DNA of 64,000 bases. Origin: Candidatus Borrarchaeum weybense. Lineage in GTDB: Archaea > Asgardarchaeota > Sifarchaeia > Borrarchaeales > Borrarchaeaceae. A program made the translations under genes and the position numbers. How positions within the stretch are numbered: position 1 is the first letter of the stretch; every line of letters begins with the position of its first letter. Positions 5,285 through 62,498 of this stretch are shown one piece after another. Under the pieces are notes generated by a model. The model was not told the origin of the DNA and ran no database searches. It saw only the letters and a list, made by a program, of their open reading frames with translations. The stretch spans positions 128,001 to 192,000 of the forward strand of contig JAHQJS010000006.1 of assembly GCA_019057385.1 (NCBI GenBank), given 5' to 3'.

Positions 5285-5567
5285 ACATCCACTTTCATTG
5301 TAAAGTTATTTCGGAATGATACTCTGATAATCATTTCTTCTTCTATGATTCCTTTTATATATTCTACGCGCGGGCGTTTTCCAAAAGAATTAAAGGATTT
5401 TTTAATTTGACATTGTACTTAACATGAAAAAGTTTTAGTTTAGAAGATTAGTAAGTATTTTTATGTTAGGAACACAAAAAGCTGGCGATAAGCGCTTTAG
5501 GATTCAACTTCTATCTAATATGAAGTTTTAAAATTTAATTGCCTATCATTTCTTCAGGATGTAAACA

Positions 5568-7490: not shown

Positions 7491-8693
7491 TTGAGGGAGT
7501 TTATGTTTCAAACGCTAAAGAAGAAAATGTTAGATGCATATTCTTCCTTGACTCTCCATCTTCTTATAATGACCTGCATCTCAATCTTTTTGTCTCTATG
7601 GTTATTTAATCTTCAGGATCCGTTAACAGATCCATGGGATCTATGGTATATTTATGCAATTAATATTAGAAACAAAATATTAGATTGGAATTACGATATG
7701 GCCCCTTTCCTATATGAATTAAGTTGGCAGCCACATTTACCGTTTTTTGCATTCATCTCAGCCTTGCTTCTCTTTATCGTAGGTGATGCCAAACTTTCCT
7801 GCATCTTGGTATCAATCTTTTCAGTAATGCTTACTTTACTTTATTTAAGAGAGTTTGCAATTTACATTGGACTAAAAGATGAAGTAAATAAAATTCTCAT
7901 CGTTTATATTTCGAGTTACACTGTAATTTCAAACATTGCACGTCCAATGAATGATTCATTAGCCGCTTTTTTCTCTGTAGTAAGCTTATTCTATATATAT
8001 CGCTCTCTTAAAACAGATCTTCTTAAGGAATATGTTATTCTCTCAATTATACTCACATTGTCAGTACTCACTAAAGACTCTCTTTTTCCTTTGTTATTAG
8101 TTCCAATAAGTTTCTATTTGTTAACCCTTCTAAAAATGAAAGAAAATATGAATGCCGAAATATTAGGAAAACTTATTCTTTTTACTATTTTAATTCCATT
8201 CATTCTTTGGCTTTCTTTTGTTTTGAGTCTTGATCTTCTGCCAGTTATCCTTAACAGAAGAATAGGTGGTTTAGAAAGACTCTATAGTACTGCTCGTTCT
8301 CCTTTCATGTTTATTTTTTCAATTATTGTTTGTTTTCATTTCCTCCCAATTTTAGTATTCTCCAATTACAAGGTTTTTAGGAATCAAAAATATTGGATAT
8401 TATTAATTTGGCTATTCCTCTTTATTATTGCTAGAATAATAGCTCCAGGACCTTTCTGGGATAGATTATGGCTACCTGGACTCTTCTCCGCCGTTATATT
8501 AGGCTGTGGAGAACTTAAGTCGAATAAGTTATATGAGATCTCTCCAAAACTTCCGAAAATCCTCTTTATTTTAATGATAGCTGTGAATTACTCTGTTGCT
8601 CTTTTGTTCATCATGTATTCTGCCGAAATTCCGGTCATATTTCAACTAATTTCGCCTATTTTCGAATTTTTAAAAAGGTACTATGTTCAATAG
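7491..8693 (+). CDS. Multi-pass membrane protein, probable GT-C (PMT/ArnT-like) glycosyltransferase
   Basis: About 10 TM helices; ARPMNDSL and LTKDS motifs resemble PMT_2 family. Confidence 0.6.
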   Translation: MREFMFQTLKKKMLDAYSSLTLHLLIMTCISIFLSLWLFNLQDPLTDPWDLWYIYAINIRNKILDWNYDMAPFLYELSWQPHLPFFAFISALLLFIVGDAKLSCILVSIFSVMLTLLYLREFAIYIGLKDEVNKILIVYISSYTVISNIARPMNDSLAAFFSVVSLFYIYRSLKTDLLKEYVILSIILTLSVLTKDSLFPLLLVPISFYLLTLLKMKENMNAEILGKLILFTILIPFILWLSFVLSLDLLPVILNRRIGGLERLYSTARSPFMFIFSIIVCFHFLPILVFSNYKVFRNQKYWILLIWLFLFIIARIIAPGPFWDRLWLPGLFSAVILGCGELKSNKLYEISPKLPKILFILMIAVNYSVALLFIMYSAEIPVIFQLISPIFEFLKRYYVQ

Positions 8694-38760: not shown

Positions 38761-38978
38761 ATCTTTCCCTCGGTGTGATATACACTACAAATTATAATGT
38801 GCTAGATTTATAACTTTATAAAATTCCCAATTATTTCGAAAATGACTTGCATGAAAGTATAATTTCACGTAATTGACAAAAAACTCTAAAATAAACTAAC
38901 TATTATACTGATTGGCAACTCTTATACCTAAAGTAAAATAATTTTATGGAGTCCAACTTACAATCGGGAGGCGTCTCT

Positions 38979-39473
38979 TTGCCTAAAAGGAAAATAGCAA
39001 TAATGGGCGTAGGAAACACTTTACACAAAGATGAAGGGGTAGGAATTCACATAATACGTGCCCTAGAAAAAGTAAAAAAACGTTACGATCCATTAAAAGA
39101 TGTAGAACTAATTGATGGAGGTACAGGAGGTCTCCTTCTCTTAAAACTAATAGAGGATTTCGATACAGTTTTTATTGTTGATGCCGCTTTAGCAGGAGGC
39201 AAACCGGGAGATATCTATATTTTAAGTCCAGAACAAATTTCCAAATCACCAGATTCTCAACATATGTTTTCAGCTCATGATATCGACCTAACATATACCC
39301 TTCAAGTGGGTAGAGAACTGGGCATGCAAACTGAGGTTATTATAATAGGTGTTGAACCGAAAGACTACACTTCCCATGGTTTAAATCTTTCAGATGAATT
39401 AAGTAATAAAATCACTGAAATAATAAAAACAATAGTTAATGAAGTCAAAAAACTTAAAATGAAGTTTAAGTAA
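38979..39473 (+). CDS. Hydrogenase maturation protease (HyaD/HycI family)
   Basis: GVGNTLHKDEGVG, DGGTGG, IVDA, SAHD; GGAGG SD before TTG 38979. Confidence 0.92.
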   Translation: MPKRKIAIMGVGNTLHKDEGVGIHIIRALEKVKKRYDPLKDVELIDGGTGGLLLLKLIEDFDTVFIVDAALAGGKPGDIYILSPEQISKSPDSQHMFSAHDIDLTYTLQVGRELGMQTEVIIIGVEPKDYTSHGLNLSDELSNKITEIIKTIVNEVKKLKMKFK

Positions 39474-46957: not shown

Positions 46958-48298
46958 TCAAACGTGGTGTGCTTTTTGAAGGCTGACAGATGAACATGAA
47001 ATGCAGGGATCAAAAGATCTCACTATAAATTTCGCAGTCTCTTGTACGGTCTCAAGAGATTTATTTTTAGTGAATTCTTTTTGACAAATTCTGTTTAGAA
47101 TTTCGTGAATTGAAAAGGTGTTTAACTCTGTTGGGACATGGATTTTTACATCATTGGCGGTCATGTTTTCATTCACTTTATAGTAGTGAATTAAGGTTCC
47201 TCTAGGTGCTTCCACGGCGCTAAATATGTTATCGTATTTTAACTTCGTAGATGTAACAAAAACAGGTTGTTCTTTAGTTATTTCTGTATTATCGAGGATC
47301 AAAAGCCCTTTATATAAGCATACAAGGATTTCAATCAACCTTAAGACATTCATCATTAAAATGTTTTCATCCCATTTCTGAAAATCCTTAAGGATTTCAT
47401 GAACTTCATAAACCCCATATTCGTTTGTTATGTGATACCTCGCTAGAGGTCCTACCAAAAGACCTCTTCCTCTTTCTTGCGTACTTGATGAAGTGAGGCT
47501 TGAAGTTTTTATTCTATTATCAATGATGAACTTGTCATAATCGTTTACATCAAAAGTTGCCAAAGTTTCTCTGTCTTCATTCGCAATTTTTAAGCGCCCA
47601 TCATAGATACTATATGTTCCATCTCTCTGAAGTCCCATATACAACGGATTTTTCAATTCAAACATTTTTACTGTATCATCAATTTTTTCGATTATTTCCT
47701 GTGCAAAATTAAGGAAAAATTTAGCAATAGCAATACCGCTTTTTAAACTCCTTTTTAAAAGGTTTATTTCTTTTTCTGTTAAATTTTTTGACATTCCGCC
47801 GATAATTATAGAAACAGGTTGAACAGCGCGTCCACCTACAATTTCCGTCACATTTTTCCCGATACTTATGAGCTTTGCAGCCTTTACGAAAAGTTCCGAT
47901 CGATTAAGTATTACATCATTTTCTTGACTTGCGGACGCTAGACTTAATAAATCCGGCAGTGCCATGTACACAAAATGTATCATATGATTAGTAATTGTTT
48001 CTCCTATTAAGACTAATTGTCTTGATAAGGCTGAGGCATACGTGGGTTCTATATCCAAGGCTTTTTCAAAAGCTTTACAAGATGCAACTATGTGTGCCGC
48101 AGAACAGAATCCACAAATCTTCGAAACTAATCTAGGAATCTCTGAGATTTTTTTTCCGATAAGGATTTTCTCAATTCCTCTGTAATCTAGCGTTGAGAAA
48201 TTTACTCTTGAAACTTCATCTTTGTCTTTGTTTACAAAGATCTCTATCTGTCCGTGACCTTCAATTCTGGTTAATGGTTTTATTGTCATTTTTTTCGT
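46958..48298 (-). CDS. Group 3-like [NiFe]-hydrogenase large subunit with atypical motifs; probable ACG start
   Basis: TRIEGHG, KICGFC, EAPRG, DPCISC; lacks L1 Arg and terminal His. Confidence 0.85.
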   Translation of the reverse strand, partial: TKKMTIKPLTRIEGHGQIEIFVNKDKDEVSRVNFSTLDYRGIEKILIGKKISEIPRLVSKICGFCSAAHIVASCKAFEKALDIEPTYASALSRQLVLIGETITNHMIHFVYMALPDLLSLASASQENDVILNRSELFVKAAKLISIGKNVTEIVGGRAVQPVSIIIGGMSKNLTEKEINLLKRSLKSGIAIAKFFLNFAQEIIEKIDDTVKMFELKNPLYMGLQRDGTYSIYDGRLKIANEDRETLATFDVNDYDKFIIDNRIKTSSLTSSSTQERGRGLLVGPLARYHITNEYGVYEVHEILKDFQKWDENILMMNVLRLIEILVCLYKGLLILDNTEITKEQPVFVTSTKLKYDNIFSAVEAPRGTLIHYYKVNENMTANDVKIHVPTELNTFSIHEILNRICQKEFTKNKSLETVQETAKFIVRSFDPCISCSSVSLQKAHHV

Positions 48299-49058
48299 TT
48301 TGTTCACCCCTCTTCACAAAGCTTTTTGGACGTGTGAATTTTGAATAAATACCACTAGTTATAATGTCCTCAGAAACTTCAATAGATGAAAAGAAATTGA
48401 CAATATTGGACATAAAATCTGGCACTATAGGCCCCATACACCCTTCGCATGGGATATTTGCCTTTATACACTTTGCTTTGCACCCTGCTCTCGTTATGGG
48501 GCCAAGACAAAGTACATTTTCATGTAAAAAACACTCAAAAGGCATTTTTTCTGGTATTAGTTTATCTACTTTTATTTTGCTTTTAAAACCATTATCGGGC
48601 CTTAATTCGCATTCTGAACATAGATTCTTTAGAGATAATTTAACTCTTTCACCATTCAAAAGTGCCATTAGAGTGTTTCCAAGGAAATCTGTAGGAACAG
48701 GACATCCCGGAATGAATCCATCTATCTCTATTATATCGTTAATTGGTATTGGATCTATTTCATCTGAAAGTGAAGTAATTCCACCTGAGATTGCGCAAGT
48801 ACCAAGGGCAATGACCTTCTTAGCCTTCCTTCTGATTTCTAAAAGTTCCTCTTTCTGTTCCTCTTGAGAAACGCTTCCTTCTATTAAAGCTATGTCACAA
48901 TTGTCGATATTGTCGTTATCTTCAATTAGTGGGAAAATAAAATCAACGGACTCTAAAAGTTCTGGAAAGATATCTAATTCTATAATAGAGGTAAGACACC
49001 CGTTACAGGATGTTAATGAAGTTACTAAGATTTTAGGTTTCACTAAGTTTCTCTCCAT
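48261..49058 (-). CDS. [NiFe]-hydrogenase small subunit (MvhG-like)
   Basis: SCNGC, EGSV, GTCA..GG, PGCP, CLGP.TRAGC...C......C.GC.GP. Confidence 0.88.
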   Translation of the reverse strand: MERNLVKPKILVTSLTSCNGCLTSIIELDIFPELLESVDFIFPLIEDNDNIDNCDIALIEGSVSQEEQKEELLEIRRKAKKVIALGTCAISGGITSLSDEIDPIPINDIIEIDGFIPGCPVPTDFLGNTLMALLNGERVKLSLKNLCSECELRPDNGFKSKIKVDKLIPEKMPFECFLHENVLCLGPITRAGCKAKCIKANIPCEGCMGPIVPDFMSNIVNFFSSIEVSEDIITSGIYSKFTRPKSFVKRGEQNEKNDNKTINQN

Positions 49059-49097
49059 TTTCGATCGTTCTTATGATTATCAAATTGTAAGTTCGCT

Positions 49098-51683
49098 TTA
49101 TTGCGTTGCGGTGATAGTAGGACTCTCTAATCCAGATAATCTTCTATAAAAATCGTTTACTATGGATGCAAATTTATGACTGTCAATAGCGGAAAGCGAA
49201 ACTATGTGGAGTTTATCCTTGAGCTCGGGAACAAGTTCTTTTAGCAACATTATTCTTTTTTCTGCTTTCGAGAAACCGTCTATATATTTACAAGATTCTT
49301 TCTGACACCCTATTACTAACACTCCGTCGAAACCTTGTTCGAAGGAATAGAGTACGAAGCGCACGTCGACTCTTCCCGTACAGGGCACCTTTACAATCAA
49401 AACGTTTGGCGTGTACTGTATTTTCTTTAGACCTGCGTCATCGGCTGCTGAGTAACCGCACGACTCGCATGCAAAGGCGATAATTTTTGGCGATTGTGAA
49501 AATTTTGAGTATGTTTCAATTGTTTTCATCATTTTGAGCGTAGTATCAATCTGCATTTCAATTGCTTTCGTCGGACAAACTGCAACGCAAATGCCGCATC
49601 CCTTACAACTAAATTGATCGATAATTACGTCTTCCGAATCAATGGAAATAGCCCTGTAGGGACATGAAGTAACGCACAATCCGCAGAATCCACATTTGTT
49701 AGTATCTATTGTGATGCCATGAATTTCTGGTATCAAATGATCTTTTGACAAGAGACCGATAACCTTTATCGCAACATCATTTGTTGCAGAAATCGTGGTT
49801 TTATAATCCGCTGGTCCTCTTACAGAACCACAGCCAAAAATACCCGAAGCTAATGTAATGTCTGACATAAATCCTTTAGAATCTAAACTGAAGTCTAAGG
49901 CCGATTCTCTCAGTTCTTTTAAGCTTTTGTTAGGGACCATACCAATGTTTAGAATAATCATGTCGGTTTCAAAACGATCTGATTCTGTCGCTATATATTT
50001 CCTAGTCCCCTCTACTTCGATTTTAAGGATTTTTGCCCAATGAAAAATCTTATGTTCTGGCGTAAACCACATAACTGGGTTCTGTGGTATTCTACTGATA
50101 TCATAGAATACATGAAGTTCGCATTCTGGTAACCTCTTTTCGATTTCATCAATGTACTTTTTAGTAAGGGTACAACAATAGGTAGAGCATTTATCGGTTC
50201 CCCCGACACACTGGATTATTGCTATACTCTTTGGTGGGTTTCCATCAGAAAGTTTGATCAGTTTACCCCTAGTAGGACCATCAGAAGCTAGAATCCTTTC
50301 AAACTCAGCTGATGTCAACACATCATTTTGAGGGTTATGTTGATATGCTGACAAATCTTGAAATAAGTCAGAACCAATTGCTAGCACCTTTGCCCCTACA
50401 TTGATTCTCAATTTTTTGGTTTTTTCTTCTAAGTTAATGGCGTTCGTCGGACAAGATTCTTCACACAGTCTACAGTTTCTACAATCTTCAATAGATTCTT
50501 CATCTATGACAGAGGCGTAGGGATATGCATTTGAAAAAGGGATATGGATGAACTTTCTTTGCTTAAGTCCGAATTCATATTCATCTGGTTTTTCATTTGG
50601 ACACACATTGGAGCATCTCTTACAACCGGTACAATCATCCACGTCGACAAATCTAGGATGGATTAGCAATTCAATTTCAAAATTACCAACGTGCCCAGAC
50701 ACTCTTTCGACAGTGGTGTTTGTAAAAATCTTCACATTTTTCTCTTTCACGACTCGGCTAATTAACTCTGTAAGATAACATGACGCACACTCTTTAACAT
50801 CATGAATAGTACTCCATCTTGCAATCTTTCCACCTAACGTTGGGGATTTTTCGATGAGGATAACTTCCAAGCCCGCCCTTGCAAATGATAAAGCTAAGCT
50901 TATACCCGCAAGTCCACCTCCAATCACTGCAACACTTTTTTGAGTTCTTATAATTTCTTTTACTTTGATGTCTTCTTGAAGAATAACCCGATTAACAGCG
51001 GCTTCTATTAAGATCTTTGCTTTTTCAAGAGCGATTTGTGGTTCTGAATCATTGACCCAGACACATTGCTCCCTGATATTGGCAAATTCTGTGTTTTTGA
51101 TTACTTCAACTGGGAGAAGTCCTTCGAAGATGTCCGCAACCACGAATGAATGAGTTCTTGGTGAGCATGAAGCAACCACGATGCGATTAATAAAGAACTG
51201 ATCAACCCATTCCTCTTTTATGCCCTCCACTTCTCTTATATCACACAATCTATCAACAATGCGTACCGAAACAACGTTTTTTAGAGAGGCAACATACCTC
51301 TTTAAGTCAGCGACATCTAATACACAAGATATTTCTTCAGCACATAAACAGATGATGACACCTATGCGTAGTATTCCTACTTTGGTGATGTCATCTTTGT
51401 CGATTTGATCAAATTGCGCTGTCCCAGAAAGGATGTTATCATTTAATTTCATGATTTTTAGAGCCAATTTGCCTTCTTCAGTCAACATATAGTTCTTTCC
51501 GCTCTTTTTAATCAAATCTCCCATCTTTTTCAGATGGAAGTTAAGTTTCCCCGACGTTTCCAACTTCAACAGCGGCAGAAAAGCGGAAAAAGACAAAACC
51601 CCTTCTCTCTCAAGGAATTGGAGTATTTTTTGCCTTGTTGGATGTGAAAGAACTGAATATAATTCCATAATTGTTAACTCCAT
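49098..51683 (-). CDS. Winged-helix HTH / HdrA / MvhD fusion protein
   Basis: N-terminal LSHPTRQKIL..SGKLNFHLKKM..YMLTEEG wHTH; HdrA motifs NIREQC, GGGLAG, EFERIL, QCVG..CS.YCC, ferredoxin motifs; C-terminal MvhD CESCGY, PCTGRV, GC....C. Confidence 0.88.
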   Translation of the reverse strand: MELTIMELYSVLSHPTRQKILQFLEREGVLSFSAFLPLLKLETSGKLNFHLKKMGDLIKKSGKNYMLTEEGKLALKIMKLNDNILSGTAQFDQIDKDDITKVGILRIGVIICLCAEEISCVLDVADLKRYVASLKNVVSVRIVDRLCDIREVEGIKEEWVDQFFINRIVVASCSPRTHSFVVADIFEGLLPVEVIKNTEFANIREQCVWVNDSEPQIALEKAKILIEAAVNRVILQEDIKVKEIIRTQKSVAVIGGGLAGISLALSFARAGLEVILIEKSPTLGGKIARWSTIHDVKECASCYLTELISRVVKEKNVKIFTNTTVERVSGHVGNFEIELLIHPRFVDVDDCTGCKRCSNVCPNEKPDEYEFGLKQRKFIHIPFSNAYPYASVIDEESIEDCRNCRLCEESCPTNAINLEEKTKKLRINVGAKVLAIGSDLFQDLSAYQHNPQNDVLTSAEFERILASDGPTRGKLIKLSDGNPPKSIAIIQCVGGTDKCSTYCCTLTKKYIDEIEKRLPECELHVFYDISRIPQNPVMWFTPEHKIFHWAKILKIEVEGTRKYIATESDRFETDMIILNIGMVPNKSLKELRESALDFSLDSKGFMSDITLASGIFGCGSVRGPADYKTTISATNDVAIKVIGLLSKDHLIPEIHGITIDTNKCGFCGLCVTSCPYRAISIDSEDVIIDQFSCKGCGICVAVCPTKAIEMQIDTTLKMMKTIETYSKFSQSPKIIAFACESCGYSAADDAGLKKIQYTPNVLIVKVPCTGRVDVRFVLYSFEQGFDGVLVIGCQKESCKYIDGFSKAEKRIMLLKELVPELKDKLHIVSLSAIDSHKFASIVNDFYRRLSGLESPTITATQ

Positions 51684-51789
51684 TTTTCAAAAATCAATAT
51701 TTTTCCTTTTTTCCTGTTACATTCAACTGAGAGTGCAAGATTATAATCGTGAATTTTTTGTTAACTTATAAATAATTATCGATGGTTAC

Positions 51790-51940
51790 TTACAAAAACT
51801 TTTTTGATAATTTTTGTTTACAAAATAGGAAAAAAAATATTTTCTTTTTCAATAGCTTAGGTTGTCTTTTGGGCGTTTAGATAAGTTGACTTTTTGTCAA
51901 TTTTTGTCGCAAAAATTTAGAAACAAAATTTTTGGACAGA
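51790..51940. promoter_or_regulatory. Repeated TTTTTG/CAAAA boxes in divergent promoter
   Basis: TTTTTG-nn-AATTTTTGT at 51801 and 51891 (90 bp apart), each extending into a TTTTG..CAAAA palindrome. Confidence 0.45.
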
Positions 51941-52040
51941 ATTATATATTCTTGCATATATGGTTGAAATAACACTGAAAAAATTCAATTGGTGAAAATT
52001 ATCAATTAAAATCACTTAAAACTAATATGGAGGAATGTTA

Positions 52041-52403
52041 ATGGCTCAAATTGAAGTTTCTGAAGAAATCAAAAATAAAACTCCTGAAACAAACAATTTC
52101 GCGTGCCCAAACTGGGATACCTGTACTGTCCACCGATGTGATATCTGCGCTTTTGGTAAAAGCTTGACCTATGAATCGGTAAAAACCGCTAATGAACCAA
52201 ATTTAGCATATTCATGTGAAACATTTGGCCAATATGACGTAAAAAATCTAATCTGTAGCAGATGCCCCCTTAAACTGAATTGTATGGAAGAAAAAGAAAA
52301 AAGGCAAGCCTACCTAAACTCTCTGGCAGAAATGGAATCTTTGGTAGGATTAGTTCAGAAGAAAATCGCAGAATCCAAAGTCAATCTGGGAATCAAACTT
52401 TAA
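52041..52403 (+). CDS. Small Cys-rich (two Cys4) metal-binding protein
   Basis: C-x5-C-x4-C-x2-C and C..FG.YD.....C..C.....C; GGAGG SD. Confidence 0.75.
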   Translation: MAQIEVSEEIKNKTPETNNFACPNWDTCTVHRCDICAFGKSLTYESVKTANEPNLAYSCETFGQYDVKNLICSRCPLKLNCMEEKEKRQAYLNSLAEMESLVGLVQKKIAESKVNLGIKL

Positions 52404-52558
52404 TCGAATGATTCCCCTATTTTTGCCCCTCACTCTTTTTAATCATTATTTTTATGAATCTTTTAAGAAGAAAACTGTATCTTTTTAATCATTAATGCGT
52501 ATTTCGATCGTACATTTCTAAACTGTTGTGAGAGTCTAAAATAAATAAAATATGAAGT

Positions 52559-53884
52559 TTAGGCTTTTTTCTTAGCCTTTAGTTCTTTTACCCTTATCAA
52601 CAATCGTTCTAAGATTTCTTTGTCCGATAAGCATCCTTCTGGCGCTTCTATTACTTTCTTAACGCGAATGGGAACCCCATCCATTCTGTAACCCGTGCCT
52701 TCCGCCTCAATGCCCGCTATCGAGCATGGAAGCAATACATCCGCTAGCTCTGTCGTAGGTGTTTGATGAGGGTCAATTGCTATAAGAGGGATTTCTGCTA
52801 GACGTTTTGCTGCTTTTAATGGAAAATTAGCTACGGCATCCGCCGCAATAACAAGAGCAGCGTCAACCTCTCCTTTTGCCAACACTTCATTTGAGGTAAA
52901 TTCGCCCGGTCCATACCTTGGATAGCCCCTGCTGAAATCAACTGCAAAGGGATATCCTGTTATCCACGTTAGGACCTGACCAATGCCAGTTACATTCCAG
53001 TGTCCTCGCATCGGACAGATCAAAAATTTGGTGAAAGCAGCGAGATCTCGAACAAGACTTAAGGCGATATCAATATTTCTATGCTTTCCGCTACTCATGG
53101 TAAGCCCAAGACCGAAAAAGACAATTCCCATTTTGCTATTCTTTAAGATATTAACGAGCTCAATTATTTCTTCCTTAGAAACTCCACCTACCTCATCAAC
53201 AGCAAGTTCATTGCCTGCTAACACTGTTCTAACAGCACTTATTACTTCGAAATCTGTACCCGGTTTCGGTTGAATGAAGAGATTTGCCAATTTCGCAGTG
53301 TGGGTTTCTCTGGGGTCTACCACTACCATGAGTCTGTCTTTAACACCACGTTCCGTAAAGAATCCCCTTCGATAAACGGAATATCTACTCATATGACGGG
53401 GATGAGCATGAACTGGATTGCAGCCCCAATAGATGATTAAGTCTGCTCGATTCATGATTTCTCCTAAGGTTGCTCCTGATAATCCAATATCCTGCACTCC
53501 TAAAATAGACGGACCGTGACATACAGAAGCGGTCTGATCTATACAACCACCTACTTCTTCGGCTAATGCTACTCCTATGCTTTGGGCCTCGCATTCTGTT
53601 GAAGCCCATCCATAAAGCAACGGCCATTCTGCATTCACTAAAAACTGTGCTGCCTTTTCTATGGCTTCATCTAATTCAACTTCTTTGAGCTTCCCATTTT
53701 CTCTTATCATCGGAGCAGTGATTCTGTGAGATACGTTGTTGGCTGACATGAATTTTGCTGTACCGAGGACACAGGCATTTGCAGTTTCCACAATCTTACC
53801 ATTTTCCACATAAATTTCAATATCGTCGCATAAACATCCACAAAAAGGACAAATGACATTTTTAACAACAGTTTGTTTGCTCAT
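52559..53884 (-). CDS. fwdB: Formylmethanofuran dehydrogenase subunit B (Cys form)
   Basis: CPFCGCLCDD, SVCHGPS, HAHPRH, MRGHWNV. Confidence 0.96.
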   Translation of the reverse strand: MSKQTVVKNVICPFCGCLCDDIEIYVENGKIVETANACVLGTAKFMSANNVSHRITAPMIRENGKLKEVELDEAIEKAAQFLVNAEWPLLYGWASTECEAQSIGVALAEEVGGCIDQTASVCHGPSILGVQDIGLSGATLGEIMNRADLIIYWGCNPVHAHPRHMSRYSVYRRGFFTERGVKDRLMVVVDPRETHTAKLANLFIQPKPGTDFEVISAVRTVLAGNELAVDEVGGVSKEEIIELVNILKNSKMGIVFFGLGLTMSSGKHRNIDIALSLVRDLAAFTKFLICPMRGHWNVTGIGQVLTWITGYPFAVDFSRGYPRYGPGEFTSNEVLAKGEVDAALVIAADAVANFPLKAAKRLAEIPLIAIDPHQTPTTELADVLLPCSIAGIEAEGTGYRMDGVPIRVKKVIEAPEGCLSDKEILERLLIRVKELKAKKKA

Positions 53885-53900
53885 CCTTTAGTTCACTCCC

Positions 53901-54311
53901 TCACTTTTTGAGCGGCATTATTTTTTTCATTAGTGCAGTAGGGGCTGGCACCCTTTCATTTGGAGCAGGTTCAATAATAGCTTCGATTCCTTTATAGGAT
54001 GGCATTCCTGTGCTATCAGTCTCTGGATTGACCACAGCATTTGCGTAAAGCCCCATTGGAATGAATACAATTCCTCTGTGTGGGGCCTGAGTTGATTCAA
54101 TTCCGCTTACTAAGACTTCACCATAATCAGTTTTAACTTTCACAGTATCGCCATCGTAAATTCCTAGTTCCTTCATGTCATCCGGGTCGATATCACATAC
54201 AGCAGTGCTCAGGACGTATCCTCGTGTGAGTTTTTCACCTTCTAACGCTACTCCTTGCTCAATCGATCGACCGGTAAGAAGGGTGACCTTTTTTGATTTT
54301 TTCATTCCCAT
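53901..54311 (-). CDS. fwdD: Formylmethanofuran dehydrogenase subunit D
   Basis: LLTGRS..QG, FIPMG.YAN, TGMPSYKG. Confidence 0.93.
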   Translation of the reverse strand: MGMKKSKKVTLLTGRSIEQGVALEGEKLTRGYVLSTAVCDIDPDDMKELGIYDGDTVKVKTDYGEVLVSGIESTQAPHRGIVFIPMGLYANAVVNPETDSTGMPSYKGIEAIIEPAPNERVPAPTALMKKIMPLKK

Positions 54312-54914
54312 CTCTTTTCACCATGTTCCTACTGGAAATTTAAGAGGGTATCTTGAAAACTAATATGGATGAATAGTAGGATCTAGTCAACAAATTTTCA
54401 AGTAATGGTCTTTCAAATATGTACAATTTGAAAGTTGTCGAAACTTTCACACTCATCTTTCCATTTAAATTTTGCTCATTTTAATGTTTTGAATAGTACA
54501 TTTAGAATATATAAAAAGAATCAATCAACTTCTAAGATGAGAGGCTTATTGTTATTTTCCATGAACAGAAATAGATTGCTTTAGAGCTAAAGTAGAATTT
54601 TTGCCAAAAACAGCACATATAAAGAACCTGTGCTTCTAATACTATATGATGAAAAGTGCAAAGGAGAACAGAGGAACAGATACTAGCTAGACGATATACA
54701 ACCACTTTACGCGTTTCAATGATTTAGTGACTAAAAATACAACTTTTGTTGACCTTGTAATCTTTTTGAAGCCTCATCCTATTCTAATTAAGCGACTGGG
54801 TGTAAACTTCATAAAAAGGTAAATGCTTAAATATCCAAATACTGCTTAAAGGACTGTTGATCGCCTTAATTTTGGGTGATTATCGGCAAACTCCTATGAG
54901 CTTGAGGGACGTTA

Positions 54915-55157
54915 ATGCCTTACGAAATTGTTATCAATGAAAGATTGTGTCATGGATGTGGAGATTGTTACACTGCATGTCCAAAGACTCAATTGTGTTT
55001 AATAAATGAAGATCATGAAAACCTAATTTTTGTTGTTAAAAAAGGGAAGGCTCATGTTGTAAACTCAAAGTTATGTGACGGATGCGGAATGTGTATTGAA
55101 GCTTGCCCTGTTCAAGCAATAAAAATAATCATTTCTGCAAAAGAGGTGCCTCGCTAA
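54915..55157 (+). CDS. 2x[4Fe-4S] ferredoxin (FwdG-like)
   Basis: CHGCGDCYTACP and CDGCGMCIEACP. Confidence 0.85.
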   Translation: MPYEIVINERLCHGCGDCYTACPKTQLCLINEDHENLIFVVKKGKAHVVNSKLCDGCGMCIEACPVQAIKIIISAKEVPR

Positions 55158-55915
55158 TGTTACCGTTACATAGAAAAATTGTTGAACCTGATACGATCAC
55201 AGCAGAATTTAAACTCTTGACGATTGATCTGAAACTTAATTATGACAGAGCACATTGTACAGGTTGTGGTACGTGCATCTTAGTTTGTCCAAAAAATGCT
55301 ATTGAAAGAGGACCTGTAGGCGCTTCCATTAAAGGGGATACCGACACACCTGCAATACTGATCGATGAAAATAAGTGCGTTTACTGTGGCACTTGCGCTT
55401 ATATGTGTCCTTTCTTTGCCTTGAAATTGGAGATAAATGGCGAGCCTAAAAATTTGCTTGCTGAAAACAAAGCGGTTCCGCCATTACCCACAGACTTTGT
55501 CGACCTCGAAAGGAGAAAAGGAATGAAGGCACGAAAGTTATTCAATGGTAAGATAAAACTCTATCCAGAAAATTGCCCTGGAGGTTGTTCGACTTGCGCA
55601 AACATTTGCCCCACTGGAGCACTTTACGTACCACATCCTAAAGAAGGTGGAGAACGAGTTGATAAAATTGCGCTTGACGAATCGAAATGTATCTATTGTG
55701 GAGCCTGTGTTAACGCATGCCCAACAAAATGTACAATAATGAGGGATGAAGATCAGTGTCTTTTTGATACCGAATGCCCTATCGTATGTGTAAACGAATG
55801 TCCTATTGAATTAGAACGTGAAGTCATTTACGATGAAGAAGGGGAATATACAGAATTTTGGCTTAATATAGTAGAAAAATTAAGATCTCCCCTTAAATTC
55901 TACGAACGTGAGTAA
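55157..55915 (+). CDS. Polyferredoxin (FwdF-like)
   Basis: Four CxxCxxCxxxCP-type motifs plus extra Cys; TAATG coupling sets the start at 55157. Confidence 0.85.
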   Translation: MLPLHRKIVEPDTITAEFKLLTIDLKLNYDRAHCTGCGTCILVCPKNAIERGPVGASIKGDTDTPAILIDENKCVYCGTCAYMCPFFALKLEINGEPKNLLAENKAVPPLPTDFVDLERRKGMKARKLFNGKIKLYPENCPGGCSTCANICPTGALYVPHPKEGGERVDKIALDESKCIYCGACVNACPTKCTIMRDEDQCLFDTECPIVCVNECPIELEREVIYDEEGEYTEFWLNIVEKLRSPLKFYERE

Positions 55916-55961
55916 TGGAATCAAAGAAGAATATTTCGTCACTTTGGAGGTGGTGATAAGA

Positions 55962-57950
55962 ATTTCAGAAGAAGAAATGCGCATTGGAGTTTTCGTTTGT
56001 CGTTGAGGTTTCCAAATTGCAGCTTACGTTGATGTTCCAGCATTAACTGAGTACGCAACTACACTTCCGAACGTTGTACTTGCAGAACAAAATCTCTCTC
56101 TTTGCACAACAGCAGGAGCAGACCTTATAAAGGATAAAATCGTGGTTTACAATTTGGACCGCATCGTTGTCGCGTCCTGTACGCCAAAAACACATGAACC
56201 CGTTTTCAGATCTATACTCAGTGATTTGGGGATGAGTCCTAGTTTCCTAGAGTTCGTAAACATCAGAGAACATGTTGCTTCGGTACATATGGAGACCCCA
56301 AAGAAAGCCTTAGAAAAAGCAAAAGAATTATTGCGGGCTGGCGTAGCCCGTGCGGCGGAGCTTGAAGACGTTCCTAGAAGGGTTATCAGTGTAAATCCGA
56401 CTGCCTTAGTGATCGGTGGCGGGATCGGTGGATTAACTGCAGCATTGAATTTAGGAGATGAAGGAATACAGGTTTATCTCGTCGAAAAGGCACCAAGCGT
56501 TGGTGGACACATGGCAATGCTCGATCGCACGTATCCCACTGATGATTGCAGTATCTGAATCTTGGGTCCAGTAATGCTGGAAGTCGATAGACATCCTAAC
56601 ATTGAAGTTATGAGTTATTCTGAAGTGAAAAGCGTTTCAGGCGTGATCGGTGATTTCGCAGTTACAGTTGAACATAGACCAAGATACGTCAATGAGATAA
56701 GGTGTAATGGATGTGGAGTTTGTATGGATGTTTGTCCGGTCTATGCACCTAATGAGTTCGACTGTAGTCTTGGACCAAGAAAAGCGGTTTATAAGCCATT
56801 TGCACAGGCAGTTCCTAATATTGCTACAATCGACATGGATTATTGTATTCGATGTAAACTCTGTGAACGCGTATGCGAATTAGAAGCAATCGATTTTAAT
56901 CAGCACCTCAAGGAAACAGAATTACATGTAGGGACAATTATCGTTGCTACCGGTTTCGATGAATTCAAACCCTATGGTCTATACGGCTATGGTGAATATG
57001 AGAACGTTCTAACGCAAAATGAATTCGAGCGAATATTGGCGCCGAATGGACCTTCTTCAGGCCACTTACGGAGAATTTCTGACGATAAAGAGCCAAAGCG
57101 AATTGCAATAATACAATGTGTTGGTTCTAGAGACCGAACTAAGAATCTTCACTGTTCAGGATACTGTTGCATGGTTGGGATTAAGAACGCAAAACTTGTC
57201 AAACAGCATTATCCTGATGCTGAAATCACAGTATGTTACATGGACATAAGAGCGTCTGGAAAAGATCTTGAAGAATACTACACGCGTTCTAGAAAACATA
57301 AAATAAAATATCTTCGAGGAAAAGTATCAGACGTATCAGAAGATCCAGAAACTAAAAACCTTATTGTACGCGTTGAAGACACGTTAGCAAATCAGATTAG
57401 AACAATCGAAGCGGACCTAGTTATTCTATCAGTAGCCATGGTTGCAGGCGAGGGAACAGAAAAGATAGCCGAAATTCTAAAACTTGAAAGAAGTTCTGAC
57501 GGCTTTATCAAGGAGTTCCATAACCGACTAAATCCTATTGACACCAAGATCCCCGGCATTTATATTGCGGGGGCAGCACAAGGTCCAAGAGCTATAGGTG
57601 ATACAGTCGCCTCGGCAAAGGGTGCAGCGGCAGCAGCATCGTCGCCAATGATAACGCGAAAGTACGAGATGGAACTTATCAAGGCTCTTGTTGACGAAGA
57701 AAGATGTTCAGGTTGTACTCTTTGTGTCAAAACCTGTCCATACGGTGCTATAACTATGGAGGAAGGTGTTGCAAAGGTGGATGAAGTTCTTTGCCGTGGT
57801 TGTGGTACTTGTACTTCGGTATGTCTATCGAACGCGATTGCGCTACGCTATTATAGAGATGAACAAATGGAAGCCTATATTGACGCTTTATTGGCACCAG
57901 AGGAAACCGTGACCGAGAAAGCCGTAGCGGAGGAAAAAGTAGGAGGTTAG
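55962..57950 (+). CDS. hdrA: Heterodisulfide reductase subunit A, selenoprotein with two in-frame UGA (U15, U199)
   Basis: One frame across TGA 56004 (VFVCRUG, canonical CHCG) and TGA 56556 (DDCSIUIL, canonical DCSxC); about 662 aa full-length HdrA. Confidence 0.93.
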
Positions 57951-57954
57951 AACA

Positions 57955-58410
57955 ATGGGTCAGAGTAAGAAACAGAAGGTTGATGCAATTGAGTTCGTAC
58001 CTAAAATCGTCACTTTTGCATGTTGGAAGTGAGGATACGAAGCCGCAGACATGGCTGGTGTTACAAGAACCCAGTATCCTGCCAACGTGTTGCCTATAAG
58101 GGTCCCGTGTGCTGGTCGAGTATCTCCTGACCTCATTATACGAGCGTTGAGACGAGCCGATGCTGTGATAGTTGTCGGTTGATACGAAGGCGAATGCGAC
58201 TTTGAGATTGGGAACAAGATTGCAAAAATGCAGATTGACTATCTCAAAGAAATGCTTAAGACCATCGGATTAGACGAACGTCGTATACAAATGAAATGGT
58301 GTTCCGCCGCTGAAGGCGAAAAATTCGCTCTGATGGCGAATGAAGTGACAAACGAAATCTTAGAATTAGGACCTAATCCACTAAAAAACAGACCTGCTGC
58401 AAAAGAATGA
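57955..58410 (+). CDS. mvhD: MvhD/VhuD [2Fe-2S] subunit, selenoprotein with two UGA (U26, U76)
   Basis: FACWKUGYEAADMAG, VPCAGRV, VVGUYEGEC, WCSAAEG; TGA at 58030 and 58180 sit at conserved Cys positions; GGAGG SD. Confidence 0.93.
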
Positions 58411-58464
58411 AACTCATGGGAAAACTTAGTTCATGAGTTAACGCCCCTGCGAGGGGTGCGGCAG
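58394..58464 (+). promoter_or_regulatory. Candidate SECIS element (eukaryote-like, three-way-junction variant)
   Basis: Helix CUGCUGCA/UGCGGCAG, AUGA (the mvhD stop), 10-bp helix AACUCAUGGG/UUCAUGAGUU with AAAA apical loop, side hairpin CCCCU-GCG-AGGGG. Confidence 0.65.
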
Positions 58465-58506
58465 ATATACCTTATCTTTATCATTCTCTTAGGAGATTAT
58501 ATACAA

Positions 58507-59712
58507 ATGGAAATCGGAGAATTCTTCGCTGTAAGGCCAAAAGAAGGTCTTGAAGAGCTTGAATCCCACGAGTTGAAGTATGGAAACGGTGCAATTCAAG
58601 CTATAATGAATTTCATGCTAAAAAACCAATTAGTTGATGTCTTCTTGTCATTTACAGAACGTAAAGATCATTTTTCACTTAAACCGGTTATTGTAGAAGA
58701 GCCCAAAGAAATATTTGATATTTCTCTTTCACAATTTATTGCGTATAATTTACCAAACATCGATTCTGTTTCAAAATATGTTGCCTCTAAACTCAACGGG
58801 GCAAAAGATAACGACAAAAAAATAGGGGTAATTGCCAGACCCTGTGATATTAGAGCGTTCATAGAACTGGCAAAACGTGATCAAATTTCACTTGATAATC
58901 TTTTTGTGATTGGGCTCGAATGTATTGGTCGAATAGACCCAAGAGAACTCAAAAAAGTCCTTAAAAAAGCCGAGATTGACCCTGAAAGTGTGGTTAACGA
59001 AATAATAAATAACGGAGTCTTGACTCTGGAACTTAATACTGGAACAACTCAAGCCTTCAAGTTGGGCGAAGAAATCGATGTCAGGAGTTATTGTAATCAG
59101 TGCCCAAAGAAGGTTCCGAAAGAAAATGTTGCAGATTTAACCTTCTGGATTGATCATCCTCTTGAAGGAAATGAAGAGATTTTTGAAGTTCGTTCTACGC
59201 AGGGAAAGGAAGTGTTGGAGAAAGCAGCAACTGAAGTAATCGAGGTAGAAAAGCTTTCGGATGAGAATATTCAACAACTCAAGAATTACATTGCCTCCTT
59301 AGAACAAACTGCGCTTGAGCTGCAAGAGTCCGAATTTGCCAAGTTAGACGAAATGTCTGATGAAGAGCGGTTTGATTATATAATTTCAAACTTCGAGCAA
59401 TGCACGAGTTGTATGATGTGTATCCGTGCATGCCCGATCTGCTATTGTAAAGATTGTAATGTTGTACGAAGAAGAAAGGAATTAGATCCTATTATGATTA
59501 ATTTAACCCGCCTATCTCACGTAGGAGATACGTGCATCGCATGCGGAAAATGTAGCGAGGTCTGCCCGAAGTCGATTCCGCTATGTCTCATTTCAAAGAA
59601 ACTAGTGGAAGATTTAAAAGAACTCTGGCCTGGTCACGAGCCTGGTCACACTATAGAGGAAATTCCGCCAAGATCTTGGAAAGGCATGAAAGCAGCGAGT
59701 GGCGCTGAATAA
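58507..59712 (+). CDS. FdhB/FrhB-like F420-interacting flavo-Fe-S subunit
   Basis: GVIARPCDIRAFIELAKRDQI, IGLECIG, CxxC, C-terminal 2x[4Fe-4S]. Confidence 0.85.
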   Translation: MEIGEFFAVRPKEGLEELESHELKYGNGAIQAIMNFMLKNQLVDVFLSFTERKDHFSLKPVIVEEPKEIFDISLSQFIAYNLPNIDSVSKYVASKLNGAKDNDKKIGVIARPCDIRAFIELAKRDQISLDNLFVIGLECIGRIDPRELKKVLKKAEIDPESVVNEIINNGVLTLELNTGTTQAFKLGEEIDVRSYCNQCPKKVPKENVADLTFWIDHPLEGNEEIFEVRSTQGKEVLEKAATEVIEVEKLSDENIQQLKNYIASLEQTALELQESEFAKLDEMSDEERFDYIISNFEQCTSCMMCIRACPICYCKDCNVVRRRKELDPIMINLTRLSHVGDTCIACGKCSEVCPKSIPLCLISKKLVEDLKELWPGHEPGHTIEEIPPRSWKGMKAASGAE

Positions 59713-59762: not shown

Positions 59763-60929
59763 ATGAAATTGCAAAAAAGCATGATGACTGCTGAAGATAT
59801 AGTAGATTATTGTTATCAATGTGGCAAATGCTCTGGCAAATGCCCACTCGGACATATTATGGAATCGCCTAGAGTTATAATTCAGAAAGTACTTTCAGGA
59901 GACACCGAAGAGGTGATAAAGTCTAAAGATGTTTGGCGATGCCTCACGTGCAATGAATGCACAGTTCCAGAGTGTCCAATGGCTATCAATTTTGCTGAGT
60001 TTATTCGGACAATACGTACCAATGCGGTACGTGAGGGCTACCAAAACTTCAGAGAAACACATCACGAGGTTTTCAAAACAGCAACTAGATTAATGGCAAA
60101 CCCTAATATTAAGCCGAACAAATTATTGAACTGGCCAGAAGATGCTAAAATAAGTAAGGAAGGAGAAACTGCCCTCTTTGTTGGTTGTTTAGAGTTTTTT
60201 GATAACGTCTCTTATTTTGCCGATATGGGAGCTAAGTACGGTGAGATTTCAAAAGATGCTGTGAGAATCCTTAATGAATTAAATATTGTCCCTGTAGTCG
60301 TTGAGGACGAGAAATGTTGTGGACATGACGTTCTATGGTCTGGCGATGAAGAAACTTTTCTGAAATTGGCAGAGTACAATACAACTGCCTTTAAGAAAGC
60401 TAATGTGAAGCGTATTATAACTACTTGCGCAGAATGCTACCGCACATTAGCAGTAGATTATCCGAATTACGTGCCAGATTTTGATTTTGAGGTTATCCAT
60501 CTCTCCGAATTTCTTGCAAAGAAAATTGATGAAGGAAAATTAAAATTCCCCAGACATTTTAACAGAGTGGTAACGTATCACGATCCATGTCGACTAGGAC
60601 GACACATGAGTGTTTACGATGCTCCTAGAAAAGTGATGGAGCGTATCCCAGGTCTTACCTTAAAAGAAATGAAGAAGAATAAAGAGAAAGCGCTCTGTTG
60701 TGGTGTCAGTTCTTGGCTTAATTGTGATGATTATGCAAAAGCAATAAGGATAGACAGATTGACTGATGCACAAAACACAGGAGCACAAATATTAGTGAAT
60801 ACGTGCCCCAAGTGTGAGATGCATTTCAATTGTCTGAGATGTGAAAAAGGTGAGGACAAACCTTTAGATTTTACAAAATTAGAAGTAATGGACTTCGTGA
60901 CGCTTGTCGCAAAGGCTTTAGGTATTTAA
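59763..60929 (+). CDS. HdrD-like (HdrC + two CCG domains) Fe-S oxidoreductase
   Basis: CYQCGKCSGKCP, WRCLTC..C...CP, CCG, YHDPCRLGR, CCG..CPKC. Confidence 0.88.
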   Translation: MKLQKSMMTAEDIVDYCYQCGKCSGKCPLGHIMESPRVIIQKVLSGDTEEVIKSKDVWRCLTCNECTVPECPMAINFAEFIRTIRTNAVREGYQNFRETHHEVFKTATRLMANPNIKPNKLLNWPEDAKISKEGETALFVGCLEFFDNVSYFADMGAKYGEISKDAVRILNELNIVPVVVEDEKCCGHDVLWSGDEETFLKLAEYNTTAFKKANVKRIITTCAECYRTLAVDYPNYVPDFDFEVIHLSEFLAKKIDEGKLKFPRHFNRVVTYHDPCRLGRHMSVYDAPRKVMERIPGLTLKEMKKNKEKALCCGVSSWLNCDDYAKAIRIDRLTDAQNTGAQILVNTCPKCEMHFNCLRCEKGEDKPLDFTKLEVMDFVTLVAKALGI

Positions 60930-60944
60930 CTGGGAGGTTCATAC

Positions 60945-62498
60945 ATGGCTAGTCCCAACGAGTCAAACAATGTCGTCTTGGTTATTGGTGGTGGAATTGC
61001 AGGTATCCAGTCTTCATTAGACCTTGCGAAATTGGGTTTTAATATATACCTTGTTGAAAAACGCCCTAGTATTGGAGGCATAATGGCGCAACTCGACAAA
61101 TTATATCCTTCAATGGAAAACAGTCTGTATCACTTAACTCCGAAAATGGGTGATGTACTAGAAAACCCAAATATCGCATTACTCACCTATTCTGAAGTGA
61201 CAAATGTTGATGGATCCGCAGGCGACTTTAAAGTGACTATTCTGCAGCATCCACGCTTTGTCGATGGTACAAAATGCGATGCATGCGATACATGTACGAC
61301 GGTTTGCCCAATGGTGACCGTGGACACAGATTTCGATATGGGGCTGGGAAAAAGAAAAGCAGCGTACACACCATTTACACAGGCAGTACCAAAAACATAC
61401 GTGATCGATAAAGATATCTGCTTATATTTCAACAACAAAATGTGCCAGAGTTGTCAAAAATTATGCCCAAAAGGCGCTATTAACTTTGATCAGGAGCCAG
61501 TTGAGAGGCAAATCGATGTAAATGCGATAATTGTCGCAACTGGGGTACTACGATATAACATATCAAATCTATCAAAGTATGGCTATGATTTTGAAAATGT
61601 TTTGACAGGATTGGAATTTGAAAGAATTCTAACATCGAATGGACCTACTGAGGGTCAAATAATTAGAATTTCTGACAGGCAAATACCAGAAACCATTGCA
61701 TTCATTCCCTTAGACTCATCAAAGTCACAAAAAGCGGTTGCAATAAAACAAAGTATTGAATCCAAAGAAAGAAATCCCAACATAGAGTGCGTTGTTCTCA
61801 TGGATGGAACTTTAGAAGATGAGAAGTTTGCCACATTTATTCAAAGGTCAATGGCAGACGGTGTCAGTTATATTGATGGGATTATTTCCGCAGTAGAAGA
61901 AGATCCAGATCGCAAAGATTTGATTCTTCAATACAAAGACAAAAATTCAGAGGAAAATAAAGAAATAAAAGTCAATATGGCAATCCTCTTTGACCAATTA
62001 CTTCCTTCAAAGGAAGAGATGACCCAGCTGGCATCAGTTTTGGGGTTAAAACTAACCAAGAAAGGGTTCTTTAAAAAGAAATCAAAATCAGAAACTGTTG
62101 AAACAAAAAAGGCTGGAGTCTTTGCTATAGGTGCTGGGCTGCAACCAGAAGATGTTTCGTTGGTATTAACTGATGTTAATACGGTAGTATCAAAAATCGC
62201 CTCACAATTTGCACCACCAGAACTATGGACGCCTAAAGCATTCGTTGAAACAGAATATTGCATTGGTTGCGGATATTGTAGAGAGGCCTGTCCCTTTTAT
62301 GCTATTAGCCTGCAGGTAGTAGAACTAGAGTTACCTGTGGCAGAGGTGGCGGGTATACCTCTCAAAACAAGAAAGGCACAGGTACATGAAAGTCTCTGTA
62401 GAGGTTGCGGAATCTGCGTTTCAGAATGTCCTGTTCAAGCCATCAGATATGGTGACCCACAAACATTGGAGCAAGTACTTTCGGCACCTGTTGAATAG
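60945..62498 (+). CDS. Degenerate HdrA paralog lacking N-terminal domain and several Cys ligands
   Basis: GGGIAG and EFERIL kept; DCSxC replaced by ENSLY; QCVGSR..CS..CC absent. Confidence 0.85.
   Translation: MASPNESNNVVLVIGGGIAGIQSSLDLAKLGFNIYLVEKRPSIGGIMAQLDKLYPSMENSLYHLTPKMGDVLENPNIALLTYSEVTNVDGSAGDFKVTILQHPRFVDGTKCDACDTCTTVCPMVTVDTDFDMGLGKRKAAYTPFTQAVPKTYVIDKDICLYFNNKMCQSCQKLCPKGAINFDQEPVERQIDVNAIIVATGVLRYNISNLSKYGYDFENVLTGLEFERILTSNGPTEGQIIRISDRQIPETIAFIPLDSSKSQKAVAIKQSIESKERNPNIECVVLMDGTLEDEKFATFIQRSMADGVSYIDGIISAVEEDPDRKDLILQYKDKNSEENKEIKVNMAILFDQLLPSKEEMTQLASVLGLKLTKKGFFKKKSKSETVETKKAGVFAIGAGLQPEDVSLVLTDVNTVVSKIASQFAPPELWTPKAFVETEYCIGCGYCREACPFYAISLQVVELELPVAEVAGIPLKTRKAQVHESLCRGCGICVSECPVQAIRYGDPQTLEQVLSAPVE

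Follow-up and report, generated by a model that had tools for sequence, protein, structure and literature searches.

The window analysed here comprises 64,000 nucleotides of the genome of the Asgard archaeon Candidatus Borrarchaeum weybense (contig JAHQJS010000006.1, positions 128,001 to 192,000). It contains a gene in which a winged-helix DNA-binding domain (wHTH) is fused to the N-terminus of an HdrA-MvhD flavoprotein. The genome holding the window is 4.18 Mb long in 8 contigs, and the nearest relatives in public data carry the labels Borrarchaeum (96%) and Sifarchaeum (83%). An earlier sequence-only reading proposed that the arrangement is a one-component sensor that wires H2 to transcription. 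The three open reading frames (ORFs) on which it was based are present as it described them, all on the minus strand, with the genes for a hydrogenase small and large subunit following the fusion gene. The main features, in window coordinates, are as follows.

49098..51683, minus strand: wHTH-HdrA-MvhD fusion gene, an ORF of 861 amino acids (aa).
51426..51671, minus strand: ArsR/SmtB-type wHTH (aa 5-86; a1-a2-a3-a4-b-b-a5), from Pfam, profile, AlphaFold2 (AF2) and Foldseek.
51513-51554, minus strand: recognition helix of the wHTH (aa 44-57), which reads ETSGKLNFHLKKM.
51369..51425, minus strand: linker between the wHTH and the HdrA N-domain (aa 87-105), poorly conserved and with indels.
49512..51368, minus strand: complete HdrA (aa 106-724), from alignment to 5ODC chain A (E 1.7e-104) and its invariant columns.
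49128..49493, minus strand: MvhD domain (aa 731-852), with Cys739/742/768/793/798 conserved (5ODC chain D, E 7.6e-26).
48261..49058, minus strand: mvhG, Mvh-type [NiFe]-hydrogenase small subunit, 265 aa (PF01058).
46958..48307, minus strand: mvhA, Mvh-type [NiFe]-hydrogenase large subunit, 449 aa (PF00374).
51684..52034, no strand assigned: promoter region from which the fusion gene and a 122-aa ORF diverge, with TATA-like boxes on the hdrA side (51766-51775) and on the other side (within 51938-51952).
51976..52004, no strand assigned: candidate clade-specific operator, two 12-bp TGA-W6-TCA palindromes whose starts are 17 bp apart, with a 5-bp gap.

The probable true start of the fusion ORF is the second ATG (M6, 51668), giving 856 aa, because relatives begin with MELYS or MDIYS and a GGAG lies upstream. 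In Pfam the protein matches the DUF7347 wHTH at aa 7-73 (E 2.8e-9) and, at its C-terminus, FlpD/MvhD (PF02662, aa 734-852, E 8e-36). In NCBIfam it matches HdrA2 over aa 106-853 with 566 bits, under the curated cut-off of 1100 (NF040770), and NF041778 with 354 bits, under the cut-off of 1400. The hdrA stop and the mvhG start are separated by 39 nt, and mvhG and mvhA overlap. The mvhG product, at 265 aa, is longer than the 246-248 aa seen in relatives; its 3' extension overlaps mvhA by 47 nt (48261-48307), and this tail is not conserved in the 96% relative. The next gene downstream encodes an NAD(P)HX repair enzyme. The operon has no hdrB or hdrC, as had been noted from the sequence, and no histidine kinase gene. 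A separate unit 8 kb off contains an HdrD-like gene, and hdrCB are found in a distant cluster of the genome. There are at least 15 HdrA paralogues in this genome, and only the HdrA of the fusion carries a wHTH.

A search across genomes shows that the fusion, together with its mvhG/mvhA synteny, is conserved in Asgard archaea. Full-length homologues, of which there are more than 120 (identity 50-96%, coverage 98%), have PF24038 without exception and derive from assemblies of the Loki, Thor, Hel, Hod, Hermod, Odin, Jord and Kari types. Within the phylum, 139 of 400 genomes give a match and about 120 of these matches span the wHTH and the HdrA N-domain (by our count); the fusion is thus found in roughly a third of the sampled Asgard genomes. 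In 80 loci taken from species-representative GTDB genomes, the gene order wHTH-hdrA-mvhD, mvhG, mvhA is found in every locus that is long enough. HdrA-MvhD relatives from outside the Asgard archaea start at about aa 104 and have no wHTH. One non-Asgard genome among the loci is a Bathyarchaeota chromosome (CP070649, locus L059), which has the whole wHTH-hdrA-mvhD-mvhG-mvhA unit at 43% identity, likely acquired by horizontal transfer.

The N-terminal domain, read as a winged helix from the sequence alone, is indeed one, since profile searches, AF2 and Foldseek all find an ArsR-type fold. Modelled alone with its alignment, it has a predicted local distance difference test score (pLDDT) of 88.8 and the a1-a2-a3-a4-b-b-a5 topology by DSSP. 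The best Foldseek matches all belong to ArsR/SmtB (PagR, CadC, AntR, SrnR, HlyU and SmtB; template modelling (TM) score 0.6-0.7, E 2e-3 to 3e-2), and the wHTH profile finds archaeal ArsR 1y0u in the PDB (E 2.4e-4). A homodimer is predicted via a1 (aa 3-15) and a5 (aa 73-85), with an interaction prediction score from aligned errors (ipSAE) of 0.63 against 0.02 for the best control, at least 72% of contacts agreeing between runs and a partner pLDDT of at least 82. The ipSAE mark applied is reached by 20 of 30 solved homo-pairs and by 1 of 23 single chains; as this is the canonical ArsR interface, a resemblance to ArsR dimers of known structure may be why the mark is reached here. In the full-length model the pLDDT falls below 50 over aa 87-103, in the linker.

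The face of the recognition helix (G45, L47, N48, F49, H50, K52 and K53) is invariant or nearly so among 24-25 diverse orthologues. Within the clade, the ratio of nonsynonymous to synonymous substitution rates (dN/dS) is 0.03-0.12 for the wHTH, 0.06-0.11 for HdrA, 0.07-0.10 for MvhD and 0.08-0.25 for the linker. The ArsR metal or thiol site (a3N Cys, or a5 His/Asp/Glu) is absent; in aa 1-100 there is no Cys, and the sole His residues are His14 and His50. Because the wHTH has neither Cys nor the ArsR metal-site motifs, any signal must come from the fused enzyme. This type of wHTH is widespread (2173 cluster representatives at E ≤0.001, mostly small proteins). Two more proteins of this genome contain it: in one it is C-terminal on an apparent cobalamin-binding-domain protein (L099, G000:C7:869800-871600), and in the other it is N-terminal on a multi-pass membrane protein (L100, G000:C7:192700-194100).

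In other Asgard lineages the fusion gene is accompanied by a palindromic site. With at most one mismatch allowed, the 80 loci contain 75 copies of the motif TGACAA-N6-TTGTCA, compared with 3.6 in shuffles, and 71 of the 75 sites are noncoding while only 11% of the searched DNA is noncoding. Often the divergent promoter region has two sites at a distance of about 165 bp, and 44 of 69 fusion loci have one upstream. Genome-wide, there are 0-4 exact sites per genome, and by our own count about 25 of the roughly 45 listed are no more than 11 kb from the fusion gene. The Bathyarchaeota locus yielded no family operator. Because a palindromic operator adjoins the gene in other lineages, DNA binding by the wHTH-HdrA-MvhD family is, on comparative grounds, very likely. 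In the Loki-type locus L025, twin palindromes are found at 4535 and 4704, in a divergent region facing a Sec-type (selenocysteine) hdrA.

In the genome studied here, the recognition helix reads ETSGKLNFHLKKM, compared with ETTGQLNFHLKKL elsewhere, with SGK in place of TGQ. Three loci have helices other than TGQ, and none of them has the family site. A Sifarchaeum paralogue (L002, 58% identity) has a third variant of the helix, TGR, and a perfect palindrome with 12-nt arms, ATTGTCAAAAAA-N8-TTTTTTGACAAT, lies 116 nt upstream of its gene; in this palindrome the family half-sites are everted.

In the divergent promoter region of the window, a block of about 100 nt (51925-52020) hardly varies among six relatives, despite saturated synonymous sites. 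The candidate palindrome pair at 51976..52004 lies inside this block, a short way downstream of the divergent ORF's TATA-like box. It is the sole such pair in the 4.18-Mb genome, with none in five shuffles; of six relatives, all keep the first palindrome unchanged and four the second. Another inverted repeat in the region, TTGAC-N5-GTCAA (about 51880-51894), is not conserved in the 96%, 90% or 83% relatives and was put down to chance. A scan for sigma-70 promoters and terminators is uninformative for an archaeon.

A second intergenic stretch, 54312-54914, consists of about 600 nt between a small ferredoxin/polyferredoxin operon and fwdD, and is strongly conserved in four relatives despite saturated synonymous sites. 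It has no ORF of convincing length, and Rfam gives no match on 51500-55200. Within it, upstream of fwdD at 54429-54449, is a conserved and clade-specific palindrome that is unique in the genome, with perfect 8-nt arms, TGAAAGTT-N5-AACTTTCA. Its core with 7-nt arms, GAAAGTT-N5-AACTTTC, is also exact in L001, L094 and L097/L098 and is found at none of the other 94 loci. As an operator of the wHTH it was set aside, its geometry being unlike that of the family site.

The enzyme part was analysed against the MvhAGD-HdrABC complex of hydrogenotrophic methanogens (PDB 5ODC, from Methanothermococcus, and 8RVU); 5ODC provides the best solved matches for HdrA, MvhD, MvhG (5ODC_E, E 1.3e-32) and MvhA (5ODC_F, E 5.8e-57). 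The HdrA had been described as almost complete, and can now be called complete, every Cys that aligns with the HdrA and MvhD of 5ODC being present. It has the FAD (flavin adenine dinucleotide) motif GGGLAG, the N-domain cluster Cys112/114/147/173 and the Cys299/302 pair, as well as an inserted ferredoxin domain, the thioredoxin-reductase-domain motif QCVGG..CSTYCC and a C-terminal ferredoxin domain. By the 5ODC alignment, the Cys ligands for six [4Fe-4S] clusters and for the MvhD [2Fe-2S] cluster, the FAD motif and the Cys pair are all kept. Cluster HA4 feeds HdrBC (PMC13580544), and the QCVGG..CSTYCC motif, by elimination, probably binds HA4. The motif (CxGxxD..CSxxCC) is kept in 7 of 25 aligned orthologues, including this clade, while the others have lost its four Cys; in these lineages, such as L025 and other Loki-type loci, the branch towards HdrBC may be gone.

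The large subunit has the motifs RIEGH and KICGFCSAAH and, near its C-terminus, DPCISC followed by SSVSLQKAHHV, the C-terminus reading DPCISCSSVSLQKAHHV. All Ni-Fe ligands are present, as judged from a motif survey of orthologues, with both Cys pairs (the N-terminal CxxC and the C-terminal DPCxxC) kept, and the small subunit has its Fe-S Cys. Uptake-type enzymes match mvhA over the N-terminal 120 aa only, and the best matches are group 3; in sequence, the hydrogenase is Mvh-like (group 3c-like) and unrelated to the HoxBC/HupUV sensors. Among L003-L078, the large subunit linked to the fusion terminates exactly at DPCISCATH in most other Asgard lineages and has no cleavable extension; its N-terminal motif there is RICGLC[HY]ASQ, with Gln in the usual place of His.

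We therefore have a DNA-binding domain on an HdrA whose electron-transfer sites are all intact, and because of this the fusion protein looks like a working enzyme. The sequence-only reading survives as regards the winged helix, the conserved synteny, the missing hdrB/hdrC and the Cys-only protein. Its central proposal, that the DNA-binding domain replaces the output of a pure sensor, is not supported in that form, given the intact electron-transfer sites, both ferredoxin domains and the thioredoxin-reductase-domain motif. Our hypothesis is instead a trigger enzyme, in which a hydrogenase-linked flavoprotein is catalytically active and doubles as a gene regulator; we give this about an even chance. 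Since all the FAD, Fe-S and Ni-Fe ligands are present, a pure H2 sensor is no more likely than a regulating enzyme.

On this hypothesis HdrA-MvhD would be the flavin and iron-sulfur partner of its own MvhG/MvhA hydrogenase, and electrons would pass between H2 and FAD, and then to acceptors, ferredoxin-type or otherwise. In solved Hdr complexes HdrA's N- and C-terminal domains are part of a mobile donor arm (PMC12350162, PMC13580544). The wHTH would be tethered by about 20 flexible residues to the HdrA N-domain, a member of this arm, and two wHTH would pair via a1/a5 and attach to promoter DNA close to the operon. Whether they bind would then depend on the enzyme's redox or assembly state, so that expression tracks the H2 or redox supply, in the manner of PutA or RbkR. 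The HdrA-MvhD enzyme probably also controls genes: the dN/dS of the wHTH equals that of the enzyme body, the helix face is conserved, and a candidate palindrome pair is present in the promoter. For this lineage we infer DNA binding, its target and any redox coupling, and the redox control of DNA binding is purely inferential.

Several known systems resemble the proposed one in part. The closest in enzyme architecture are MvhAGD-HdrABC and the HdrA2-type fusions (NF040770), in which MvhD is likewise joined to HdrA; unlike these, the Asgard fusion adds an ArsR-type wHTH, has no HdrB/C in its operon and has a large subunit with an odd C-terminus. PutA of E. coli and Salmonella is a flavoenzyme whose N-terminal DNA-binding domain represses its own divergent operon, and the redox state of its flavin switches the protein between DNA and its catalytic location. 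PutA, however, has a ribbon-helix-helix and unrelated enzyme domains, whereas the Asgard fusion has a wHTH and a putative redox switch. The archaeal riboflavin kinase/regulator RbkR is a wHTH-enzyme that controls its own pathway, and its operators vary strongly by lineage (PMC5397151); unlike the Asgard fusion, it is a small kinase ruled by nucleotide/FMN (flavin mononucleotide) ligands and has neither redox centres nor a hydrogenase. The ArsR/SmtB proteins (PagR 2ZKZ, CadC 1U2W, SmtB 1R22, ArsR 1Y0U) share the fold, the a1/a5 dimer (predicted here) and an HLKxL-type recognition helix, but their metal-site motifs are not in the Asgard wHTH. In Methanosarcina barkeri the hdrBCA promoter has a palindrome to which the wHTH protein HdrR binds (PMC11218639). 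HdrR is a stand-alone protein, whereas the Asgard wHTH is fused to the enzyme. Finally, the regulatory [NiFe]-hydrogenases HoxBC/HupUV (group 2b) link H2 to transcription and signal via the separate kinases HoxJ/HupT; the Asgard hydrogenase belongs to another group and has no kinase in its operon. A literature search found no published description of a wHTH-HdrA-MvhD fusion.

A number of observations weigh against the regulating enzyme. There is no family operator in the intergenic regions 51684-52034 or 54312-54914, and no exact TGAYAA-N6-TTRTCA in the 4.18 Mb (shuffles give 0-7). The family site is also absent from 3 of 4 other genomes of the genus; at locus L095 one degenerate operator remnant is present at the aligned position. 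In 51684-52034 there is no clade-conserved palindrome with at least two G/C per arm, only A/T tracts, and the candidate pair differs in geometry from the family operator. On the enzyme side, the large subunit is without the usual His at the C-terminal processing site, and the scores against HdrA2 and VhuA (194 bits against a cut-off of 800 for the latter) are far under the curated cut-offs. Besides lacking hdrB/hdrC, the operon has no other acceptor gene.

An alternative is that the protein is a dedicated one-component sensor, in which the MvhGA-MvhD-HdrA chain would signal H2 or the redox state of ferredoxin to the wHTH without metabolic throughput, while a canonical Mvh-HdrABC elsewhere in the genome does the metabolism. 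Such a second, canonical cluster does exist (frhB-like/hdrA/mvhD/mvhG/mvhA/hdrC/hdrB at G000:C6:679000-690000, locus L093), the operon of the fusion has no hdrB/hdrC, and 4 of 5 other Asgard genomes sampled have two Mvh-type large subunits, one of them beside the fusion gene. Regulatory hydrogenases are not known to have a C-terminal extension, and in most other lineages the orthologous large subunit has none either, stopping at DPCxSCATH; most orthologues outside the clade have also lost the thioredoxin-reductase-domain Cys (the probable HA4). In this genome, however, no HdrA cluster is lost, that motif and the inserted domain that faces ferredoxin both being there, and the enzyme part is under purifying selection as strong as in metabolic HdrA. 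Moreover, the hydrogenase is not group 2b-like, Loki-type operons are headed by a frhB-like gene, which suggests a real redox partner, and no operator was found in this genome. We regard a dedicated sensor as unlikely. The gene heading the operon ahead of wHTH-hdrA-mvhD in Loki-type L025 is at 4796-5941.

It is also possible that in this lineage the wHTH is not a specific DNA binder, and serves dimerisation, docking or nucleoid-tethering, or has a target outside promoters. The family operator is absent from genome and genus, the recognition helix is altered from TGQ to SGK, and the predicted a1/a5 dimer could serve oligomerisation alone. Yet the exposed face of the helix is conserved and the wHTH has a dN/dS of 0.03-0.12 in the clade. 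Relatives have operators beside the gene, a change of operator between lineages is documented for RbkR, and the adjacent promoter has a conserved, genome-unique palindrome pair. This explanation, too, is rated as unlikely. The weakest alternative, an assembly chimera or frameshift that joined a small regulator gene to hdrA, is rejected as having a negligible chance, the same fusion being present in uninterrupted frame in more than 120 clusters from NCBI, JGI, ENA and Logan, in the 80 GTDB loci, in about 120 of 400 genomes and in independent contigs, 83-96% identical, from several studies.

The hypothesis of a regulating enzyme can be taken further, to a one-protein switch from H2 to genes that operates across Asgard archaea and has been retargeted to a new operator in this lineage. 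H2 would be oxidised at the [NiFe] site and the HdrA flavin reduced via MvhD; a redox-linked swing of the arm would make or break the wHTH dimer on DNA; and the helix, carrying Q46K, would be retargeted to the pair at 51976-52004 or to the unique palindrome ahead of fwdDB. If fwdDB were the target, H2 supply would be coupled to CO2 fixation. As a whole, this extended proposal is improbable.

Current models of how Asgard archaea live and of how eukaryotes arose place H2 metabolism at their centre. To our knowledge, nothing is known about its regulation in Asgard archaea, and an HdrA-MvhD with a built-in repressor domain is a concrete candidate for a regulator, located beside its own hydrogenase. 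If the hypothesis is true, this would be the first hydrogenase or electron-bifurcation-type flavoprotein to serve as a transcription factor. In this lineage the domain is under strong selection, its helix has changed and the family operator is lost. Because selection on the domain persists though the recognition helix has changed and the operator is lost, the protein would be a natural specificity variant, useful for working out how residues read bases.

Upstream of the fusion gene come the divergent 122-aa Cys-rich ORF, fwdD-fwdB and then a plus-strand Sec-type cluster. The features on this side are:

52035..52403, plus strand: divergent Cys-rich ORF, 122 aa, family unassigned; clade-conserved, 114-116 aa in relatives.
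55908-59712, plus strand: Sec-type cluster of HdrA, MvhD and FrhB-like protein, with a polyferredoxin ahead.
59763-60929, plus strand: HdrD-like CCG-domain protein, after the FrhB-like gene.
60945-62498, plus strand: short HdrA, after the HdrD-like gene.
From 62569, plus strand: fwdA, after the short HdrA.

An Atlas search with the divergent ORF gave no usable match. In the Sec-type cluster, hdrA occupies 55908-57950 (plus strand) and mvhD starts at 57955. Its HdrA has two in-frame TGA (CRUG, CSIU) and its MvhD two to three, and these coincide with Cys positions of the fusion protein, including Cys114 and Cys302. The contrast drawn from the sequence between a Cys-only fusion and a Sec-type hdrA-mvhD 4 kb away is thus borne out, the neighbour having TGA where the fusion has Cys.

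In the canonical cluster (L093), MvhA (435 aa) ends short of the C-terminal DPCxxC motif, and a separate VhuU-like C-terminal peptide, possibly containing Sec, may sit in the gap at 7725-8241. Contigs of 214-267 nt from runs labelled as metatranscriptomes, which are probably DNA and cannot show expression, cover parts of hdrA at 95-98% identity, including the wHTH/HdrA junction (51228-51447). Elsewhere in the window, a 175-aa ORF at 38946-39473 resembles, as judged by eye, a hydrogenase maturation endopeptidase of the HycI/FrhD type.

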